The notes under the pieces: model-generated | The model's input: only the letters and a program-made list of their open reading frames with translations | Told to the model about the DNA's origin: nothing | Databases searched by the model: none | Shown: one piece after another, positions 1-10,069 of the stretch | How positions within the stretch are numbered: the first letter of the stretch is position 1 | Layout: the number at the start of each line of letters is the position of its first letter | DNA from: a virus | DNA length: 10,260 bases | Virus genome (UHGV): UHGV-0142786 | Direction: 5' to 3' (one strand) | Position numbers and translations under genes: made by a program

Positions 1-217
1 TTAAGGCGAGTTTTCGAATCTTAAGTTTATCTTTCTGTTTCTGCTCCTCTCGTCGCCGTTTCTTCTCTGCTGCTTTTTCCGCTTTTTTTCGCTGTTTACT
101 TTGTAGTTCGAGTGCTAACTGAGTTCCGTGTTCCGGGCAGCACCACCACTGATTTGAGAATGCCGGGTGAAACCATTCCTTGCATATTTTGCATTTCCTT
201 CGCGCTGGTTTAGCCAT
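1..217 (-). CDS. ninG: NinG/Rap recombination endonuclease, N-terminal part; gene runs off the left edge of the window
   Basis: Minus-strand ATG at 217..215 overlaps the upstream stop (TAATG). Translation [72 protein letters not shown] matches my recollection of lambda NinG/Rap N-terminus. Not in the ORF track because it is truncated. Confidence 0.75.
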
Positions 218-939
218 TAAGCAGCCTCCCCTGTTACTTTCAGCATTCCGTTATCGAGCAGCTTTCTGGTCAGCCACTGTTGACCACGCCCGGTGATTTT
301 TGTGGTGAACGATATCTGTATTCCGTGATTTGTGTTGACCGCTGTTTCTTTCACTGTGAAATAGCCGCGATCCATATATTCCTGCATTGGCACATTGCGC
401 CGGGAACCTGAAGCAATAAGGATTTTGTGATCGCGCATCCACGCAAACAGTTTGTTTGGACCAATACCGACAACCTTTGCAAAGTTTCCAATCAAAATTC
501 CGCTGGCCTCGCCAACTCGATCGGCAAACTCAACTTTAGGTGCGGCAATTGCGAGCTGGTTTTCCAGTTGCATTTTCTGCTCAGCAAGATCAGCAGCAAG
601 GCGCAACGCTTCTGGTAGCGTTTTGGGGATATTAACCGCAGCTTCTTCAAGCTCTCGCCAGCGGTCAACAAGGCGAGCGGTGAATTCCGGCGACAACTGG
701 GCAACAACGACAATACTGTCTCGCTTACCTTGTTCGCCTTCGAAGACGTAATGCTCGTACTGAACATTGAACCCTAAGTTATTGATTCTTTCGGAAACCT
801 CAATTTGAGGAAGCCGGATAACACCATTTTTAGCCAGCGTTTCGATGGTACGTTTCACATTGTCATGACGCTTACCCACCAACTCAGCGATTTCAATGCT
901 TGTCATTTTGATGGCATTGCCATTTATTAACTCATTCAT
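217..939 (-). CDS. Phage regulatory protein, Rha family N-terminal domain plus KilA-C/AntA-type antirepressor C-terminal domain (Roi/Ant-like)
   Basis: 240-aa ORF. N-terminal motif [24 protein letters not shown] is typical of the Rha domain; C-terminal [24 protein letters not shown]...GYF is typical of KilA-C. Start ATGAATGA overlaps the ninF stop. Confidence 0.8.
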
Positions 940-1639: not shown

Positions 1640-1779
1640 ACGTCCTCCTTTTCCTGCGGTAGTGGTAACACCCCTGTTGGTGTTCTTTCACACCGGAGAC
1701 ACCATCGATTCCAGTAAGGTTGATTTGGTCGGAAGCGGTTATCTTCTTTGCATTCACCGCACCGATAACATCGCATCAT
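1606..1779 (-). CDS. ninD: NinD-like small zinc-ribbon protein (57 aa)
   Basis: Hand translation [57 protein letters not shown] with two CxxC pairs. Length equals lambda NinD (orf57) and the ATGA overlap with the ninC stop is as in lambda. Confidence 0.6.
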
Positions 1780-2648
1780 GCAGCTTCCCTCCCGAAGTCG
1801 AAATCAAGCTGCCCTCCAAATATTTCGCATGACTCAGAACAAGAGCCGGTATCGAATCTTTTAGCTCGTACCATGTCCTGATACAGGGCTTGATAATCAT
1901 TTTCTGAATACATTTTCGCGATACCGTCCAGCGACATTCTTCCTCGGTACATAATCTCCTTTGGCGTTTCCCGATGTCCGTCACGCACATGGGATCCCGT
2001 GATGACCTCATTAAAAACACGCTGCAATCCCTCCTCATCTTTGCAGGCAAGTCCGATTTTTTGCGTTGATTTTTTAATGCAGAATATGCAGTTACCGAGA
2101 TGTTCCGGTATTTGCAAATCGAATGGTTGTTGCTTCCACCATGCGAGGATATCTTCCTTCTCAAAGTCTGACAGTTCAGCAAGATATCTGATTCCAGGCT
2201 TTGGCTTTAGCCGCTTCGGTTCATCAGCTCTGATGCCAATCCACGTGGTGTAATTCCCTCGCCCGAAATGGTCATCACAGTATTTGGTGAAGGGAACGAG
2301 TTTTAATCTGTCAGTGCAGAACGCGCCGCCGACGTATGGAGTGCCATATTTCTTTACCATATCGATAAATGGCTTCAGAACAGGCATTCGCGTCTGAATA
2401 TCCTTTGGTTCCCATACCGTATAACCATTTGGCTGTCCAAGCTCCGGGTTGATATCAACCTGCAATACGGTGAGCGGTATATCCCAGAACTTCACAACTT
2501 CCCTGACAAACCGATATGTCATTGGATGTTCACAACCTGTATCCATGAAAACGTAATACACGTCTTCACCTGCCTGTCGCTTTTGCTCCATTAGCCAGAG
2601 TAAATATGCTGACGTCCTGCCACCTGAGAAACTAACGACATTTATCAT
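1776..2648 (-). CDS. ninC: NinC, PAPS-reductase-like family protein (290 aa)
   Basis: Track ORF 1776..2666. True start taken as [17 protein letters not shown] (ATG 2648..2646), which overlaps the HNH stop as [12 protein letters not shown] resembles the PAPS-reductase/ATP-PPase P-loop. Near-identical to my recollection of lambda NinC. Confidence 0.85.
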
Positions 2649-3247
2649 GCAGCCCTGTCTCCCCATCTTGCTTTCATTGTTTCATTTGCAAATCGCCAGA
2701 ATCTTCCTTTGTGATATGAGCTTTCGCCATTACAGCAACGACTAATTGACGAACTATCAAATCCTTCTCTGACAGCATCCATAGCTGCTTCATAATAAAC
2801 CTCCTCACCAGTTTTCATGTCAGTAGAAATAACAGCTTTACTGGCAGGATGATCACCGCTAAATTTACCTAGCGATATAGGTATTCTTCCATTTTGTTTA
2901 TATCCGTGCTTTGAGTTTTCAGAATGTGATACCCATTCAAGGTTTTCAGCCCTATTGTCATCTCTTTGCCCATTTTTGTGATTAACTACCAAGCCATCAC
3001 AGAACCCTGTACAGAATGCTTTCGCAACTATCCTGTGGGCGCTGTATTTCTTACCGTATACCTTTATTTGAAGATATCCTGTCGACTTGCACTTGAATGG
3101 TTTTACGCTAGTGCCATTAATTATTTTCTTATATGGCCTCTGTCTGGTTGATGTTACTGTAACTTCCCTCGTAATAGACCTGAAATTTCCTTTATTGCTA
3201 ACCTGATAAAATGGAATCCCTTCGATATCTACCCAAACCTCAATCAT
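2645..3247 (-). CDS. HNH homing endonuclease (NUMOD4 + HNH_3 type), inserted at the 3' end of ninB
   Basis: 200-aa ORF. N-terminal EVWVDIEGIPFYQVSNKGNFRS resembles NUMOD4; HKNGQRDDNRAENLEWVSHSENSKHG is an HNH_3 motif. Own GGAGG Shine-Dalgarno. The last 9 residues KARWGDRAA equal the lambda NinB C-terminus. Confidence 0.85.
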   Translation of the reverse strand: MIEVWVDIEGIPFYQVSNKGNFRSITREVTVTSTRQRPYKKIINGTSVKPFKCKSTGYLQIKVYGKKYSAHRIVAKAFCTGFCDGLVVNHKNGQRDDNRAENLEWVSHSENSKHGYKQNGRIPISLGKFSGDHPASKAVISTDMKTGEEVYYEAAMDAVREGFDSSSISRCCNGESSYHKGRFWRFANETMKARWGDRAA

Positions 3248-3733: not shown

Positions 3734-5614
3734 TTAATACTCCGTCACGTTTTCCTGTCGCCACGCCTCGTCATATTCCGATTTCGGCATATTGGCGATG
3801 TAGCTATATGGCGATCCTGATTCAAGTTGCAGGAACTGGTGCGATTGCTCATCAAGGAACAACGGGACGCCACCTTCCCAACCTTCGCCGTTACGTTGTT
3901 TTTCAAGCATCAAAACAGATGCCGGAGACGCCAGTACCTGTTCGTCCTTCTCTGACATCTTTTCACCACTCTGAACTCTCTGTAACGCTCTCTCGCGAGC
4001 CTTGTTACGCCAGATGATGAAAAGGTTGTCTGTCAGGTCTGTTATCGCTCCAGAGCCTTTTACGTCCATTTTCCCGGTTGGTTTTTCTTCGCTGTCTCCT
4101 TTTCTGGAGTGAGTAACGAGAATGACGTGGGAGTTTGTTTTGTTTTTGAAGTCACAAATCGAGTCAACAAATGCTTTCTGCCCGTTATAGTCATCGTCAC
4201 CTATGCCGCATTTCATCAGGCTGTCGATGATGAATAACTGGATCCCGTATCGGCGGCGAGCGTAGTCGAATATTTCGATCAGCCTGTCGGCTTTCGCCGT
4301 TCCGGTCAGGCCAAACACCCAAAGTCTTTCGTCATAAAATTTAAATGCAGAGTCAATTTCCAGCACTGGCGGCATCTTGCAGCACGTCGCCTGACGGGTA
4401 AGGCGCTTAAGGAGAATACCAGGCTTCAGCTCAAGTGACGCGATGCACGTCTTCACACCCTGACGCATTGCCTCAAGTGCCATATGCCCGACAACCTCCG
4501 TTTTTCCGTGACCGTTCACACCATTGACCAGCGTCAACTCTGCCTCACGGAACTGGAATTTATCTGCCAGAGATTCCCACGGTGGATTAAACAGATACTG
4601 CTGCTTGCCGTAGAAAGCGTTGATAGTGTCCTGGTAAAACTCTCGCGCGCTGTAGAGTTCTTCAGGGTCGAAGTAGGATGCCGTGCCGATGTACTGCCAG
4701 ATTTCATCCTCGGTAACACCGTTCATCAGGCATTCGTTGATGTCTTTGTACGGCAGAGTAACAAGACGGCAACGATGTTCACCGAGTCGGCTTGCGATTT
4801 CCCTTGCGGCTTCACGACCAACATCATCAACGTCCATCGAGATGAATATTTCCTCAAACCTGTCGAGATTGTGATACTCAAACTCAATCCACTGCTGCTT
4901 AGCGCCTTTCCCGCCACCAAACGGCACGGATAACGCCGAGATGCCGTATTGCGCATAGCTCATACAATCAATTTCGCCTTCGCAAAGTACAACCGCCCTC
5001 ACGCCAGCGTCCAGAGCCTGCCATCCGAACAGACAAGGTTCGCAATCACCTTCTGCCATAATGACTTTCTTCCCGTCCGGGCGCTCAGTGCTGATTCGCT
5101 TGACCTGCAACAACTCACCATCGCGTTTGTACGGAATCACCAGAGCATCCAGTTCCCGCTCTCCATTCCACACCTTGCCGCTGACAACCTCGTAGCGCTT
5201 TACGACTTCTGGCGATATGCCACGCGATTGCAGGTACTCAAGATGGGATTCTGTTCTGGTAACGTAGCGGGCGATTTTCTTGCGATCAGGTCTGGAGAAT
5301 TTCTTCTCACGTTTGGCATCGAAATGGTGATCGTCATCCTTGATACCGAGAAATGCTTTCGCTTCCTGCATAGCCTGATGCAGGTTAATTCCACGACATG
5401 CCATCCACAAATCAAGCATGTCACCGCCGTCTCCCTCAGCGAAATCAGCCCATTTTTTCTTTCCGCTAAGGTTGACCTTAAGGCTGTTTCCCTTGTCACC
5501 GTTGACGTTACCGGCAACCCACTCATGCCCCTCTTTCTTGCCGTTTGGCAACAGGTGCGGAGCCACCCTGTCAACCTGCGCCCAAAGCAGGTCGCTAAGT
5601 TCACTTGGCCTCAT
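3734..5614 (-). CDS. Bifunctional DNA primase/helicase (TOPRIM domain plus RecA-fold DnaB/T7-gp4-like helicase), 626 aa
   Basis: TOPRIM-like acidic motifs VVLCEGEIDCMSYAQ and ISMDVDDVG; Walker A GVNGHGKTE; Walker B-like LFIIDSL. Occupies the lambda P position downstream of the O-like gene. GAGGG Shine-Dalgarno 5 nt upstream. Confidence 0.8.
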   Translation of the reverse strand: MRPSELSDLLWAQVDRVAPHLLPNGKKEGHEWVAGNVNGDKGNSLKVNLSGKKKWADFAEGDGGDMLDLWMACRGINLHQAMQEAKAFLGIKDDDHHFDAKREKKFSRPDRKKIARYVTRTESHLEYLQSRGISPEVVKRYEVVSGKVWNGERELDALVIPYKRDGELLQVKRISTERPDGKKVIMAEGDCEPCLFGWQALDAGVRAVVLCEGEIDCMSYAQYGISALSVPFGGGKGAKQQWIEFEYHNLDRFEEIFISMDVDDVGREAAREIASRLGEHRCRLVTLPYKDINECLMNGVTEDEIWQYIGTASYFDPEELYSAREFYQDTINAFYGKQQYLFNPPWESLADKFQFREAELTLVNGVNGHGKTEVVGHMALEAMRQGVKTCIASLELKPGILLKRLTRQATCCKMPPVLEIDSAFKFYDERLWVFGLTGTAKADRLIEIFDYARRRYGIQLFIIDSLMKCGIGDDDYNGQKAFVDSICDFKNKTNSHVILVTHSRKGDSEEKPTGKMDVKGSGAITDLTDNLFIIWRNKARERALQRVQSGEKMSEKDEQVLASPASVLMLEKQRNGEGWEGGVPLFLDEQSHQFLQLESGSPYSYIANMPKSEYDEAWRQENVTEY

Positions 5615-5718
5615 GATTCCCTCAGATTGAGATTTTTAAACCAGAAATCGACAAACGAAATACTTAACCAGCCGTGGTTATAACCAGCGACCAGTAGCGA
5701 TTTGATTTTTGATTTCAT
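5611..5718 (-). CDS. Candidate small ORF (35 aa) between the O-like gene and the primase-helicase
   Basis: Hand translation MKSKIKSLLVAGYNHGWLSISFVDFWFKNLNLRES. AGGTGA Shine-Dalgarno upstream; stop TGA overlaps the primase ATG (ATGA). Too short for the ORF track; no homology recognised. Confidence 0.3.
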   Translation of the reverse strand: MKSKIKSLLVAGYNHGWLSISFVDFWFKNLNLRES

Positions 5719-5721
5719 GGT

Positions 5722-6582
5722 TCACCTGTCGAAAAACACGTAGCCAGTTTTCGATACGGTGATTGCGGATGATGGTTTGGATTGTGGTTGAATGGTTTCT
5801 GGCTTTTCGTCGTTCCAGCGCTGACCGTTCAGGTAGCTCGATGGTAATAACCTGTCGAATCCGAACTGCTTACCATTCCTGCATGCGATGTCTTCTGCCA
5901 GCATCGTGGCAAACTCGCTTGCCGTACCCCTGGTAGTTTTACGCCATTCCCTGAACTGTGTTCTGAATGCCGAAGCTGCGTTTTTCTTCCCGGCCTTCCG
6001 CATGCCTGCACACCAGAATATTTCCTCGAATGCCTTGTCGGTTTCTTCGTGACGGTCAGGTGATTTTTCACACTCCGTCCGAACACTTTCGGACATAGTG
6101 TTTTTATTATTTCTTTTTTCTTTTGTAATAGTTTCTTTTGTGTGTCCCTGTTTTGGTGACAGCGCTGTCACCGTTTTGGTGACACTTTTTGTCACCAATG
6201 CAGTGACATTATCACCAGAGTAGTGACACCCTTCGATTTGCCATTCCTCGATGTTCTTGTTAGGCCCGATTTGCTGGCCTTCGCGAAGGATAACCTTCAT
6301 CGCGATAAGCTCATTCTTGGCCTTGTTTACCTTCTGTCTTGGCAGCCTGGTAATTTGAGCTAACTGACTATCAGAGATGCGATCCATCTTTTTACCGTAG
6401 CCGTATGTTTTACGGCATATGGCGTGGGCAACCTTGCTCTGATTTTTCGTTAAATCTGCGCCGATAAGCTCTTCATACAGGGCATTTGCAAGACGGGTAT
6501 AACCATCTTCAACTTCTGCCACACGACGCTCCACAGGCCGTTGTGAAGGCCTTAAATGTGTTACGGTTGCAAGATTACTCAT
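5722..6582 (-). CDS. Replication initiator with lambda-O-like N-terminal iteron-binding domain and a non-lambda C-terminal domain
   Basis: 286-aa [94 protein letters not shown] aligns with my recollection of the lambda O N-terminal domain. Iterons and an AT-rich tract lie inside the gene, as in ori-lambda. Confidence 0.85.
6093..6230. repeat. Candidate replication origin inside the O-like gene: four GTGACA-type iterons plus an adjacent AT-rich tract
   Basis: Perfect 18-bp palindrome GGTGACAGCGCTGTCACC (6155-6172); GGTGACACTTTTTGTCACC (6178-6196); GTGACATTATCACC (6204-6216); GTGACAC (6223-6229). AT-rich tract at about 6093-6150. In gene orientation: iterons first, then AT-rich, as in ori-lambda. 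Confidence 0.65.
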
Positions 6583-6753: not shown

Positions 6754-7050
6754 TCAGAATTGCATATCAATTTGCTTAAAATCCTCGGTGGCGGCCGGGG
6801 ATTTTTTCTTTGTGAGTCCATCAAGCGCATACTTAAAAGCCCTGCTAATCGGACTGATGTCTGATGCCATTCCGAAAGCACACAAGACCGAAGCAATAAA
6901 TCTCCAGTCCGTTCTGCTTATCTTCGATTCATGACAGCCAATCATCTTTGCCAGACCGCGCTGGGTAAGCGTTGACAGGTTGATGAGTAAATCAGTTTCA
7001 GCGCGATCAATTTCTCGCTGTGTTGGCTTGCTGTAACTTGTTTGTGCCAT
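6754..7050 (-). CDS. cII: CII-like transcriptional activator (98 aa)
   Basis: C-terminus [19 protein letters not shown] against lambda CII TNKKRPAATERSEQIQMEF; central [11 protein letters not shown] against lambda SQISRWKRDW. Lies between cro and the replication genes. Confidence 0.8.
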
Positions 7051-7135
7051 TTCTTAATATTTCCAATAGTGAATAGTTAGTTGAAAGGTATGCGTGGAAA
7101 CGCATATGGCCTTAGTTGGTCAGATATCTTGGGAC

Positions 7136-7181
7136 TCGCTTTTCAGCGACGTAGGACGAATGTCCGTTATTACAAAGAGCG
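7136..7181 (-). promoter_or_regulatory. nutR candidate: boxA-like CGCTCTTTG and boxB-like hairpin UCGCUGAAAAGCGA, 23 nt apart
   Basis: On the minus strand, boxA at 7181..7173 starts 11 nt after the cro stop; boxB hairpin at 7149..7136. Same architecture and spacing as the nutL candidate upstream of N. Confidence 0.55.
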
Positions 7182-7191
7182 GCTCCGCTTA

Positions 7192-7407
7192 TTAAGCAGC
7201 TTTGTGCTCCGGCGGGAACACATCATCAAGACTTACTTTTGCGCCTAACTTGTTTAGACACGCAACAAGAGCACGGCATGTTTTAAGGTCTGGGAAGCGA
7301 CGACCAGATTCCCAATGTCCGATAGCTCCCTGTGTGCATCCAACTGCCTTAGCAAGTGTTGTTTGAGAGATATTCAGTGACTCTCGATATTTTCGTAGGT
7401 TGCTCAT
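7192..7407 (-). CDS. cro: Cro-like HTH repressor (71 aa)
   Basis: Small HTH protein ([23 protein letters not shown]) transcribed divergently from cI, with a GGAGG Shine-Dalgarno. Confidence 0.8.
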
Positions 7408-7524
7408 ATGCCCTCCATAGTAACCACAAATAAAAAATACAATATGTACTCATTAAACACAAGCAAAAAATACACATTGTGCATGGATGGTTCCAGTACA
7501 AAGCGTAATAATAAGGACATGAAA
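7408..7524. promoter_or_regulatory. Divergent cro/cI control region (OR with PR and PRM)
   Basis: 117-bp gap between the divergent cro and cI starts. Two similar sites: AAAAAATACAATATGTAC (7433-7450) and AAAAAATACACATTGTGC (7465-7482), the second holding the palindrome CACATTGTG. Exact -10/-35 boxes not resolved. Confidence 0.55.
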
Positions 7525-8178
7525 ATGAAATGGTATGAACTGGCTAGATCCAGAATGAAAGAGCTCGGCATAACTCAAGAGAAGTTAGCCGAAGAGCTAG
7601 GTATGACGCAGGGTGGAATTGGACACTGGTTGCGCGGATCTCGTCATCCATCTCTTAGTGATATTGGTGTGGTGTTTAAATACCTTGGTATTGATAACAT
7701 ATCATTCAACCACGACGGGACATTTTCACCTGTTGGCGAATACTCATCGGCCCCAGTTAAAAAACAATATGAGTACCCTGTTTTTTCTCATGTTCAGGCT
7801 GGGATGTTCTCTCCAGAACTCAGAACCTTTACCAAAGGCGATGCGGAGAGATTGGTAAGCACAACCAAAAAAGCCAGTGACTCTGCATTCTGGCTTGAGG
7901 TTGAAGGTAACTCAATGACCGCACCAACAGGTTCCAAACCTAGTTTTCCTGACGGGATGTTAATTCTGGTTGACCCAGAGCAAGCTGTTGAGCCCGGCGA
8001 TTTCTGCATAGCCAGACTTGGTGGTGATGAGTTTACCTTCAAGAAACTGATCAGGGATAGCGGTCAGGTGTTTCTACAGCCACTAAACCCACAATACCCA
8101 ATGATCCCATGCAATGAGAGTTGTTCCGTTGTGGGGAAAGTTATCGCTAGTCAGTGGCCTGAAGAGACGTTTGGGTAG
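7525..8178 (+). CDS. cI: CI prophage repressor: HTH N-terminal domain plus LexA/S24-type autocleavage C-terminal domain
   Basis: C-terminal domain from [14 protein letters not shown] to WPEETFG is essentially identical to lambda CI as I recall it; the N-terminal domain is unrelated to lambda. Track ORF from 7408 is over-extended into the cro start. ATG 7525 has an AAGGA Shine-Dalgarno at 7 nt; ATG 7519 is the alternative. Confidence 0.85.
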
Positions 8179-8366
8179 AGGCGAAGCAGCAATTGGTTTG
8201 ATTTGGTATTGCTATTTTTTCTCTAAAGTTGTTGAGCATTTTTCCGTTAGATAAAAATAGACGCAAATTTACATGATTTTTTTGTGCTGTATTGCTTGCT
8301 GAAAGCTAGGTTTTGCGTAAACTTCAATTACTCAAATTAGAGTAAACAACATATAGGACACCCCAC

Positions 8367-8588
8367 ATGAAAAAATCTGCAAAGCACTTTTTCAGCGCTA
8401 TGGGCTCTATCCTTGACCTTTGCCCAGCAGGTAGCTACAGCGAGTATCATTCAAATGCTACAGACATCGACCTTATCAACTCAGATTGGGTTAAGGTAGG
8501 TAGTTACGTTAGAGACGCTGTAACTGATAATGAGCAGAAAAAAATCCCAAAGAAAGCTTCAAACCGCCGCCCCGAGAAATCTTGTTAA
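8367..8588 (+). CDS. Hypothetical small protein (73 aa as read), first ORF of the rex-position cassette
   Basis: AGGA Shine-Dalgarno 8 nt upstream of ATG 8367. No homology recognised. The 3' end overlaps the next ORF by 59 nt across an A7 run. Confidence 0.5.
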   Translation: MKKSAKHFFSAMGSILDLCPAGSYSEYHSNATDIDLINSDWVKVGSYVRDAVTDNEQKKIPKKASNRRPEKSC

Positions 8589-9063
8589 CCAACCAACTCC
8601 GTTAGGGCGAGTTCAAGACGGTAAAACCGAACTGCTTATAAATGAGGTCGCAAAGAACCCTCAAGTTCTTGAGCGCCTCATGGACAGGCCAGATCTAGCT
8701 GGCATCATGATGCAGGTGACTCACACTAGATCAGGGCCACTCCCAGACGCTGACGAATTAGCTAAGTACGAAAGAATATCTCCAGGATTCGCTCGCGAAA
8801 TAATGGACATGGCTAAGGCTGAGCAAAAACACAGACACGAGTATTACAAAGCAGGACAGAGGGGAGCAATTTGGCGAGATCGACTCGGACAGATCTTTGC
8901 GATGACTTCTGTCTTTGTTTTCGCAGGAATTGCTTACAAGATGATTCAGCACGAGGCTTATGGCTGGGCTACCGGGCTTCTTGGTGCTGAGTTAGTTGCT
9001 TTAACTAGCGTGTTTATAATTGGAAGAAGAGACAAACCGAATCCAAAGCAAACTAAAAAATGA
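8530..9063 (+). CDS. Hypothetical membrane protein with two C-terminal transmembrane helices, possibly DUF2335-like
   Basis: 177-aa ORF. Motif LPDADELAKYERISPGFAREIMDMAKAEQKHRHEY followed by hydrophobic IFAMTSVFVFAGIAY and WATGLLGAELVALTSVFIIG. The DUF2335 assignment is from memory and unverified. No clear Shine-Dalgarno at 8530. Confidence 0.6.
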   Translation: MSRKKSQRKLQTAAPRNLVNQPTPLGRVQDGKTELLINEVAKNPQVLERLMDRPDLAGIMMQVTHTRSGPLPDADELAKYERISPGFAREIMDMAKAEQKHRHEYYKAGQRGAIWRDRLGQIFAMTSVFVFAGIAYKMIQHEAYGWATGLLGAELVALTSVFIIGRRDKPNPKQTKK

Positions 9064-9066
9064 GAC

Positions 9067-9093
9067 AACCCGGCTTCCGCGCCGGGTTTTCTT
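9067..9093 (+). terminator. Rho-independent terminator closing the cI/rex-position operon
   Basis: Stem CCCGGC (9069-9074) / GCCGGG (9081-9086), then TTTTCTTT, directly after the stop at 9063. Confidence 0.7.
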
Positions 9094-9277
9094 TGCCTAA
9101 CGCCCCCAAAAAAACACATAACCAATTGTATTTATTTTAAAATTAATAGATACAACTCACTAAACAACGCAATTCTGATCTCTCCCTACATCGCCGAGGC
9201 AATACACCCACGCTAAAAAACAACACTATTAAATACAAAGCGTTGTAAAAAACCACCCCTCAATAGAACAAATCGTA

Positions 9278-9306
9278 TTGACCAGATAAAGTACATATCG
9301 TACTAT
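9278..9306 (+). promoter_or_regulatory. Candidate PL promoter
   Basis: TTGACC (9278-9283), 17-bp spacer, TACTAT (9301-9306), upstream of nutL and N. TACAA/TTGTA palindromes nearby at 9234-9247 and 9124-9134 may be OL sites. Confidence 0.4.
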
Positions 9307-9352
9307 TTAATCATCAGCAGGACGCTGGAAGCCAAATGGAACAGACTGGCAG

Positions 9353-9398
9353 GCTCTTTAAACAACGTCGAACACTCGACTACGTGGCTGAAAAGCCA
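9353..9398 (+). promoter_or_regulatory. nutL candidate: boxA-like GCTCTTTAA and boxB-like hairpin UGGCUGAAAAGCCA, 23 nt apart
   Basis: boxA at 9353-9361 (GGCTCTTTAAACAA resembles rrn boxA); boxB hairpin at 9385-9398. Same layout as the nutR candidate. Confidence 0.55.
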
Positions 9399-9422
9399 GA
9401 CCACCCAACCACATAAGCTGTG

Positions 9423-9496: not shown

Positions 9497-9769
9497 ATGT
9501 CCAGAAAAACAGAATTTAAAGGCACCGCAGCTTCTCGCCGTAGAGCTCGTCGTGCAAACCTGCAAAGTCAGGAGGCGATCAGCTCTGACAAACTACACAG
9601 GCCAACCCCTTCACGAGTGGTCTTACAATGCAAACGCAAACCAGTAATGAGAGCAGAAGTAATAACACTGACAACGTTGACCAGAAAATATGAAGGCTCA
9701 ACTTGTCTTCCAAATGTAGCCATTTACGCGGCAGGCTACAGGAAATCCAAACAGCTGACAGCAAGATGA
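9497..9769 (+). CDS. N: N-type transcription antiterminator (90 aa)
   Basis: Arginine-rich motif GTAASRRRARRANLQ near the N-terminus; C-terminus LPNVAIYAAGYRKSKQLTAR resembles my recollection of P22 gene 24 (LPGVALYAAGHRKSKQITAR). Track ORF from 9425 is over-extended; ATG 9497 follows GGGAGG. Confidence 0.8.
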   Translation: MSRKTEFKGTAASRRRARRANLQSQEAISSDKLHRPTPSRVVLQCKRKPVMRAEVITLTTLTRKYEGSTCLPNVAIYAAGYRKSKQLTAR

Positions 9770-9914: not shown

Positions 9915-10041
9915 TAAGAATCAATGGTGTGGGCAATACGAACGACGGCAATGATTGTCAGAGAACTTGGTAAACAGAACAACAAAGCTGCCTGATAGTG
10001 GCCTTTATTTTTGGCATAAATAACAGAATAAACACTGCACT

Positions 10042-10069
10042 GTGTATTCATTCCAACGAGTGAATACAC
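10042..10069. other. Inverted repeat GTGTATTCA / TGAATACAC with a 10-nt spacer
   Basis: Perfect 9-bp arms (10042-10050 and 10061-10069). Not followed by a T-run, so not an intrinsic terminator; could be a protein-binding site or RNA structure. Confidence 0.3.

Follow-up and report, generated by a model that had tools for sequence, protein, structure and literature searches.

A mosaic cI gene in virus genome UHGV-0142786 and its assignment to the VT2-Sakai/phage 2851 immunity type

Is the cI repressor gene on a 10,260-nucleotide stretch of the virus genome UHGV-0142786 (the whole stretch analysed, hereafter the window) a new hybrid between phage lambda and some other phage, or a repressor already in circulation? 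A sequence-only reading of this DNA had described a lambda-identical C-terminal domain on a non-lambda DNA-binding domain, and had thereby implied that the hybrid was novel. This implication fell away, as the whole protein corresponds to one known repressor: an exact-sequence look-up with its 219-amino-acid form returned CAQ82008.1, "repressor protein CI [Enterobacteria phage 2851]", from a phage that carries Shiga toxin (Stx) 2c, and 216/217 residues are shared with CI of VT2-Sakai/Sp5 (BAA94122.1), the difference being one Ser versus Gly near the C-terminus. These matches identify CI as an already known and common repressor of the VT2-Sakai/phage 2851 immunity type, and it is very probable that the gene encodes the immunity repressor of a lambdoid prophage of this type, with the DNA binding, C-terminal functions and mosaic origin set out below.

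The two parts of the cI gene

Residues are counted from the ATG at 7519, and the parts of the gene are as follows.

7519..8178, plus strand: cI repressor gene, 219 amino acids from ATG 7519, with Pfam HTH_3 (helix-turn-helix) and Peptidase_S24 domains
7519..7767, plus strand: non-lambda segment, residues 1-83, comprising the HTH_3 DNA-binding domain and the first part of the linker; candidate recognition helix TQGGIGHW
7768..8175, plus strand: lambda-type segment, residues 84-219 (lambda mature residues 101-236), comprising the linker with the cleavage site and the S24 C-terminal domain
7798..7803, plus strand: codons of Ala94-Gly95, predicted autocleavage site, equivalent to lambda Ala111-Gly112
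7912..7914, plus strand: codon of Ser132, predicted catalytic nucleophile, equivalent to lambda Ser149
8041..8043, plus strand: codon of Lys175, predicted general base, equivalent to lambda Lys192

The near-identity to lambda that had been noted for the C-terminal part was borne out by alignment with wild-type lambda cI (NC_001416), in which 135/136 residues of the segment encoded by 7768-8175 are identical and the sole change is W129L in lambda mature numbering (ERWVST to ERLVST). Residues 84-219 (YEYPVF...ETFG) also align to the lambda repressor structures 3BDN, 8GMU, 2HO0, 1KCA and 1F39 with E-values of 1e-65 to 1e-96 (phmmer against all PDB chains), a likeness that we consider far beyond chance. 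The Peptidase_S24 profile (PF00717) was matched over its full length (1-116) by residues 87-209, with 99.7 bits against a cut-off of 23.3 (E 1.1e-28). Furthermore, the cleavage-site and dyad residues listed above are invariant in the multiple alignment of repressors, and the Ala-Gly pair is aligned to 3BDN. CI is thus a member of the S24 autoproteolytic repressors (LexA/CI/UmuD) both by its domain score and by these residues.

At the DNA level the segment is less conserved, with 383/408 nucleotides identical to lambda cI (93.9%), and 24 of the 25 differences are synonymous. The corresponding synonymous divergence (dS) is 0.335, the nonsynonymous divergence (dN) 0.003 and dN/dS 0.009. With a dS of this size, the split from the lambda allele is old; the segment has been constrained very strongly by purifying selection and is not the product of a recent cross with lambda.

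The junction had been placed inside cI at the domain boundary, and the DNA alignment located it there. In a three-way alignment scored in 30-nucleotide bins, identity to lambda is 7-16/30 up to 7770 and 26-30/30 from 7771 to the stop codon, after which it collapses; overall, an identity of about 40% gives way to one of 94% at about 7768. The left recombination junction therefore lies at about 7768 (±10 nucleotides), at about lambda residue 101, in the inter-domain linker and 10 residues before the cleavage site, and the right boundary of lambda similarity is the cI stop codon itself. Within the segment, the differences from lambda are unevenly spread (21 in 7768-8025 versus 4 in 8026-8175), the window agrees with lambda at 8146-8152 where VT2-Sakai deviates (GCTAGTCAG versus GCCGGCCAA; Ser versus Gly), and the last 38 nucleotides of cI match the end of phage 434 cI at every position. 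These local patterns suggest that further small exchanges may have taken place within the C-terminal domain.

The N-terminal domain had been called unrelated to that of lambda, which proved too strong. In the multiple alignment 17 of its 83 residues are identical to lambda (20%), BLASTP aligns 50 residues at 30% identity (E = 8e-8), and Pfam places HTH_3 at residues 11-58 with 41.0 bits against a cut-off of 23 (E 1.9e-10). In the PDB, a sequence search found no close solved structure for this domain, and its best relatives there, at E-values of about 1e-4 to 1e-3, include the lambda repressor N-terminal domain (E 4.5e-4). Together, these matches mark it as a distant HTH_3 homologue of the lambda domain, about 16 residues shorter and without the lambda N-terminal arm. 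The segment occurs unchanged in 56 phage records, after which repressors of the Salmonella phage L/ST64T/SPN9CC type come closest, at about 48-55% identity.

The neighbouring cro gene agrees with this picture.

7192..7407, minus strand: cro, 71 amino acids, HTH_3 type (Pfam E 4e-12), not of the lambda Cro type

Cro had been described as non-lambda, and indeed no alignment to lambda Cro was obtained, any similarity being undetectable, while all 71 residues are identical to those of VT2-Sakai Cro. Its helix motif is TQGAIGHW, so that TQGxIGHW is common to Cro and CI, as expected because both would read the same operators.

The extent of the gene itself had to be revised. An open reading frame (ORF) does run from 7408 to 8178 on the plus strand, as the sequence-only reading had it, but its ATG at 7408 adjoins the start codon of the divergent cro and lies 5' of all three OR operators; it is the start of the maximal ORF only and not a credible start of cI. 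Public records are inconsistent on this point, and place the in-frame start at 7483 (231 amino acids, PGAP), 7519 (219 amino acids, phage 2851; N-terminus MKMKWY) or 7525 (217 amino acids, VT2-Sakai; N-terminus MKWY). We regard 7519 and 7525 as plausible starts.

Distribution and origin of the mosaic arrangement

The gene is widespread. The two other start variants of the protein are also in public databases, each on at least 1000 contigs, and the 771-nucleotide stretch shares 97.5-97.8% identity from end to end with annotated cI genes in 60 phage records (VT2-Sakai, Stx1-converting phage, Stx2 II, 1717, YYZ-2008, Nil2, the PA-series and others). In addition, of 5,426 complete E. coli genomes, 776 (about one in seven) carry the DNA of OR and the N-terminal domain (7408-7767), O157:H7 strains and CFT073 included, and several E. 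coli chromosomes from chicken and human match 7100-9400 without a single difference. In several chromosomes from chicken and human, the two halves of the 7100-9400 match are separated by about 1.3 kb, with an IS3-family transposase annotated between them, in or beside the cI region. The neighbouring replication gene P of strain Z1323CEC0004 is interrupted by insertion sequence (IS) elements, IS100 and IS3, and many of the copies are therefore probably defective prophages.

The relation to lambda CI is likewise on record. CI of the Eru2/Eru3 Stx phages, VT2-Sakai included, has been assigned to "Clade I", which has HTH_3 and S24 domains and, at 61% overall identity, stands nearer to lambda CI than any other clade (PMC8951638), and PMC10742460 credits Fattah et al. 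(2000) with the observation that VT2-Sa CI is highly homologous to lambda CI in its C-terminal part and only slightly so in its N-terminal part. The mosaic relation was thus published in 2000 and re-catalogued in 2022, and carries little weight as a discovery. Its use is rather that the window can be typed as VT2-Sakai/2851 immunity, from which one would expect a prophage that shares immunity with many Stx2 phages of E. coli O157:H7 and is probably SOS-inducible.

The gene is mosaic relative to lambda and the exchange is ancient, but the direction of donation cannot be told. HK97, SfI, HK544 and mEp234, which we had expected to be further hybrids with the lambda C-terminal domain on other HTH domains, were rejected as such: they carry the lambda-type segment at 90% nucleotide identity or more, and they are full-length lambda-immunity repressors whose N-terminal parts are 98-100% identical to lambda. 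SPN9CC of Salmonella, by contrast, has a collinear full-length relative of the window's CI, and its C-terminal domain is about equally far from lambda (81%) and from the window (80%). For this reason the pairing of this type of helix-turn-helix (HTH) domain with a lambda-type C-terminal domain is older than the allele found in the window.

This bears on which lineage received the C-terminal domain. It is possible, if somewhat doubtful, that the lambda lineage acquired it from the present one, the pairing seen here being the older arrangement with no graft onto a foreign HTH domain. The full-length relative in SPN9CC (48% identical in its N-terminal and 80% in its C-terminal part) speaks for such a course, although the same data would fit a gene conversion in which a lambda-type allele later replaced an SPN9CC-like C-terminal domain, and the lambda-immunity phages that we examined (lambda, HK97, SfI, HK544 and mEp234) all carry the same C-terminal domain.

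Operators, immunity specificity and induction

Six "putative operators" annotated in VT2-Sakai (AP000422) were mapped onto the window, together with the promoters annotated around them.

7028..7041, plus strand: candidate CII-binding site for pRE, TTGCTGTAACTTGT, at the start of cII, directing plus-strand transcription via cro into cI
7434..7462, minus strand: candidate pR, driving cro (TTGTGT, 17-nucleotide spacer, TATTTT), the "putative major rightward promoter" of AP000422
7435..7451, unstranded: putative OR1, AAATACAATATGTACTC, one mismatch to the VT2-Sakai operator and a perfect fit to the operator pattern; overlaps the spacer and -10 of candidate pR
7468..7484, unstranded: putative OR2, AAATACACATTGTGCAT, identical to the VT2-Sakai operator; adjoins the -35 of candidate pRM
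7484..7512, plus strand: candidate pRM (TGGATG, 17-nucleotide spacer, AATAAT at 7507-7512), the "putative maintenance promoter for cI" of AP000422
7494..7510, unstranded: putative OR3, CAGTACAAAGCGTAATA, differing from the VT2-Sakai operator at one position; overlaps the spacer and -10 of candidate pRM
9231..9247, unstranded: putative OL3, AAATACAAAGCGTTGTA, identical to the VT2-Sakai operator
9264..9280, unstranded: putative OL2, TAGAACAAATCGTATTG, differing from the VT2-Sakai operator at one position; overlaps the -35 of pL
9278..9306, plus strand: pL, driving N (TTGACC, 17-nucleotide spacer, TACTAT), found by the consensus scan and annotated in AP000422
9289..9305, unstranded: putative OL1, AAGTACATATCGTACTA, the same as in VT2-Sakai; overlaps the spacer and -10 of pL

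The expectation of non-lambda operators held. The sites at 7435-7510 and 9231-9305 are 17 bp long and of the AATACA-N3-TGTATT type, with a half-site A(A/G)TACA, and their spacing and orientation are unlike those of lambda. A degenerate pattern of this type had 18 matches in the window against 3.9 expected, a count reached in 0/200 shuffles, in a test that is partly circular as the pattern was derived from the same sites. Overlapping weak matches (two mismatches) were also seen at 10027-10048, AATAAACACTGCACTGTGTATT, downstream of N and far from OL and OR; these are probably due to chance. The TTGC-N6-TTGC pattern of CII boxes is not enriched in the window, and the assignment of 7028-7041 rests on its position and on the VT2-Sakai annotation.

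The centres of the operators are spaced by 33 and 26 bp at OR and by 33 and 25 bp at OL, compared with 24/23 and 24/20 bp in lambda. Moreover, the two clusters are colinear on the plus strand (7421-7530 and 9217-9326), each running as site, 16 bp, site, 8-9 bp, site and then a plus-strand -10, whereas in lambda they are mirror images. The close pair at OR consequently sits over candidate pRM and not over pR, and candidate pR overlaps OR1 only. OL and OR are 1.8 kb apart, and the CI surfaces predicted to serve cooperative binding and octamer looping between OL and OR, identical to those of lambda, would act on these spacings. The locus thus offers a natural experiment in which the exact oligomerisation and cleavage module of lambda is combined with different operators, spacing and orientation, and the same cooperativity module on colinear OR and OL (33-bp and 25-26-bp spacings) may mean a switch logic unlike that of lambda.

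The position of candidate pRM suggests that transcription could start at or beside ATG 7519, in which case the cI mRNA would have no leader, as in lambda. ATG 7525 has a Shine-Dalgarno-like AAGGA at a suitable distance (7513-7517), which would serve it on the longer pRE transcripts. If +1 is set at 7519, the centre of OR2 falls at about -43 and that of OR3 at about -17, against -42 and -19 in lambda. In lambda CI, acidic residues of helix 2 contact sigma. In the repressor alignment these positions are acidic in the window's CI as well (QEKLAEE versus QESVADK in lambda).

By homology, the N-terminal HTH_3 domain would use its helix TQGGIGHW to bind the six pseudo-palindromic operators, three of them in OR, which separates cI from cro, and the other three in OL before pL and N, and CI dimers at OR and OL would repress pR and pL. 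From their positions, OR2 would activate and OR3 would repress pRM. Residues 84-219, because they share 135 of 136 positions with lambda residues 101-236, would provide dimerisation, dimer-dimer cooperativity and RecA*-stimulated self-cleavage between Ala94 and Gly95 by means of Ser132 and Lys175, and the prophage would be SOS-inducible like lambda.

Several points weigh against this account. We infer operator occupancy, cooperativity, pRM activation and RecA-dependent cleavage from homology; the hexamers of candidate pR and pRM are weak and fall under the threshold of the consensus scan; the cI start may be at 7519, 7525 or 7483; and the pairing rules of lambda cooperativity may not transfer to this layout, because the spacing and orientation of the operators are unlike those of lambda.

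A specificity distinct from lambda had been predicted, and from the protein and operator sequences it is plausible, given the other recognition helix, the missing N-terminal arm and the other operators. With a non-lambda N-terminal domain, a non-lambda Cro and a different operator spacing and orientation, the window falls outside the lambda immunity group. The lambda operator half-site is TATCACCG, which also differs from the A(A/G)TACA found here. On the other hand, PMC10742460 attributes a report of cross-immunity with lambda to Fattah et al. (2000). Overlapping immunity, in which the window's CI and lambda CI cross-recognise operators or form mixed oligomers and so confer partial cross-immunity, could account for that attribution, and heteromers are physically plausible given that the linker and C-terminal domain differ from lambda only at W129L (1/136 residues). 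We nevertheless consider such overlap unlikely, since the two HTH domains are only 20-30% identical, the window's CI lacks the lambda arm and the half-sites differ. In addition, electrophoretic mobility shift assays gave lambda CI apparent dissociation constants of 3.7-6.4 µM for VT2-Sa operators, against 0.35 µM for its own OR1 and 0.21 µM for its own OL1 in the same assay, and a similar 3.7-7.7 µM for the operators of an unrelated Stx phage (PMC10742460), so that its binding to VT2-Sa operators looks like weak, low-specificity binding.

A related idea concerns cells in which prophages of the VT2-Sakai type and the lambda type reside together, where CI subunits could form mixed dimers or oligomers and thereby couple the stability or induction of the two nominally heteroimmune prophages. 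Mixed oligomers are conceivable because the linker and C-terminal domain have been kept identical to those of lambda-immunity repressors at the protein level (1/136 changes) across a dS of 0.33, and if they did form they could explain the cross-immunity that PMC10742460 attributes to Fattah et al. (2000); we rate their occurrence as improbable.

As for induction, a KilAC-domain antirepressor-like protein (217-939, minus strand), so named from the RefSeq annotation of matching genomes, is encoded in the window, and the prophage might be induced mainly by such an antirepressor and not by repressor self-cleavage. This is very unlikely in our view, as strong purifying selection has preserved the lambda-type linker and C-terminal domain in full, with an intact cleavage site and Ser/Lys dyad. 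In lambda CI this region suffices for RecA-stimulated cleavage, the CI 101-229 constructs behind PDB entries 2HO0 and 2HNF being examples, which also counts against induction driven by an antirepressor. A study of RecA and Stx2 (PMC5552940) deals with EDL933 and not with this immunity type, and was left aside.

Finally, the idea of a fresh hybrid, a recent recombinant of lambda and another phage with a new immunity combination, draws on the near-identity of the C-terminal segment to lambda at the protein level but is refuted by its 25 nucleotide differences from lambda (dS 0.335) and by the presence of the same full-length gene in phages whose sequences date from 1999 onward, as well as in 776 complete genomes of E. 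coli.

Surroundings and comparison with known systems

The genes around cI and its operators are the following.

1776-3247, minus strand: nin region, with a 296-amino-acid PAPS-reductase-family protein and a 200-amino-acid NUMOD4/HNH-like endonuclease, named from the RefSeq annotation of matching genomes
3734-6582, minus strand: replication module, with a 286-amino-acid initiator-like protein and a 626-amino-acid toprim primase/helicase
8367-8588: 73-amino-acid ORF of unknown function (phrog_26284), in the rexAB position and overlapping the DUF2335 gene
8530-9063: DUF2335 membrane protein, 177 amino acids (phrog_3996, category "moron"), in the rexAB position
9067..9098, plus strand: intrinsic terminator that closes the cI-moron operon, located upstream of OL and conserved with the VT2-Sakai "terminator for pRM transcript"
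9497-9769: N (Pfam N_peptide, E 2e-32)

Between pL and N, in the nutL leader region, a 26-codon ORF at 9337-9417 (MEQTGRLFKQRRTLDYVAEKPDHPTT) is conserved with VT2-Sakai save for a 1-nucleotide indel. No stx gene lies within the window. In the phage and E. coli genome collections searched, no genome covered 80% or more of the 10.26-kb window, which is thus a new combination of known modules, and this combination may be uncommon.

Compared with lambda CI (NP_040628), the repressor of the window has the same two-domain architecture of HTH_3 and S24, and the gene order cII-cro-OR-cI-(moron)-OL-N is shared, whereas the N-terminal domain is 20-30% identical, Cro belongs to another family, operator spacing and orientation differ and residue 129 is changed (W129L). 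LexA and UmuD share with it the S24 fold family, the Ala-Gly site and the Ser/Lys dyad, but with 40.8 bits against the LexA equivalog cut-off of 110.95 the protein is a phage repressor and not LexA. C2 of the Salmonella phages L and ST64T likewise combines HTH_3 with S24, its HTH domain being about 48-55% identical to that of the window and its C-terminal domain 47%, while C2 of P22 is barely detectable with the N-terminal domain (E 0.4). CI of SPN9CC (and of g341c and 103203_sal4) is collinear over its full length and has the same pairing of an MxWYxxA-type N-terminal domain with a lambda-type C-terminal domain, but at 48% and 80% identity, respectively, and presumably with a different immunity specificity.

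VT2-Sakai differs from the window in part of its gene content. The insert between cI and OL, with the 73-amino-acid ORF and the DUF2335 membrane protein, is unrelated to the genes found there in VT2-Sakai (H0093/H0092) and in lambda. Left of cII, the replication and nin genes likewise belong to other types than those of VT2-Sakai, replication in VT2-Sakai being of the HK022 O/P type and in the window of the toprim primase-helicase type. With VT2-Sakai/2851 the window shares the same Cro, six operators of which three are identical and three have one mismatch, an OL/pL/nutL/N region that is 94% identical and, as compared with VT2-Sakai itself, 93/98 residues of cII and 88/90 residues of N.

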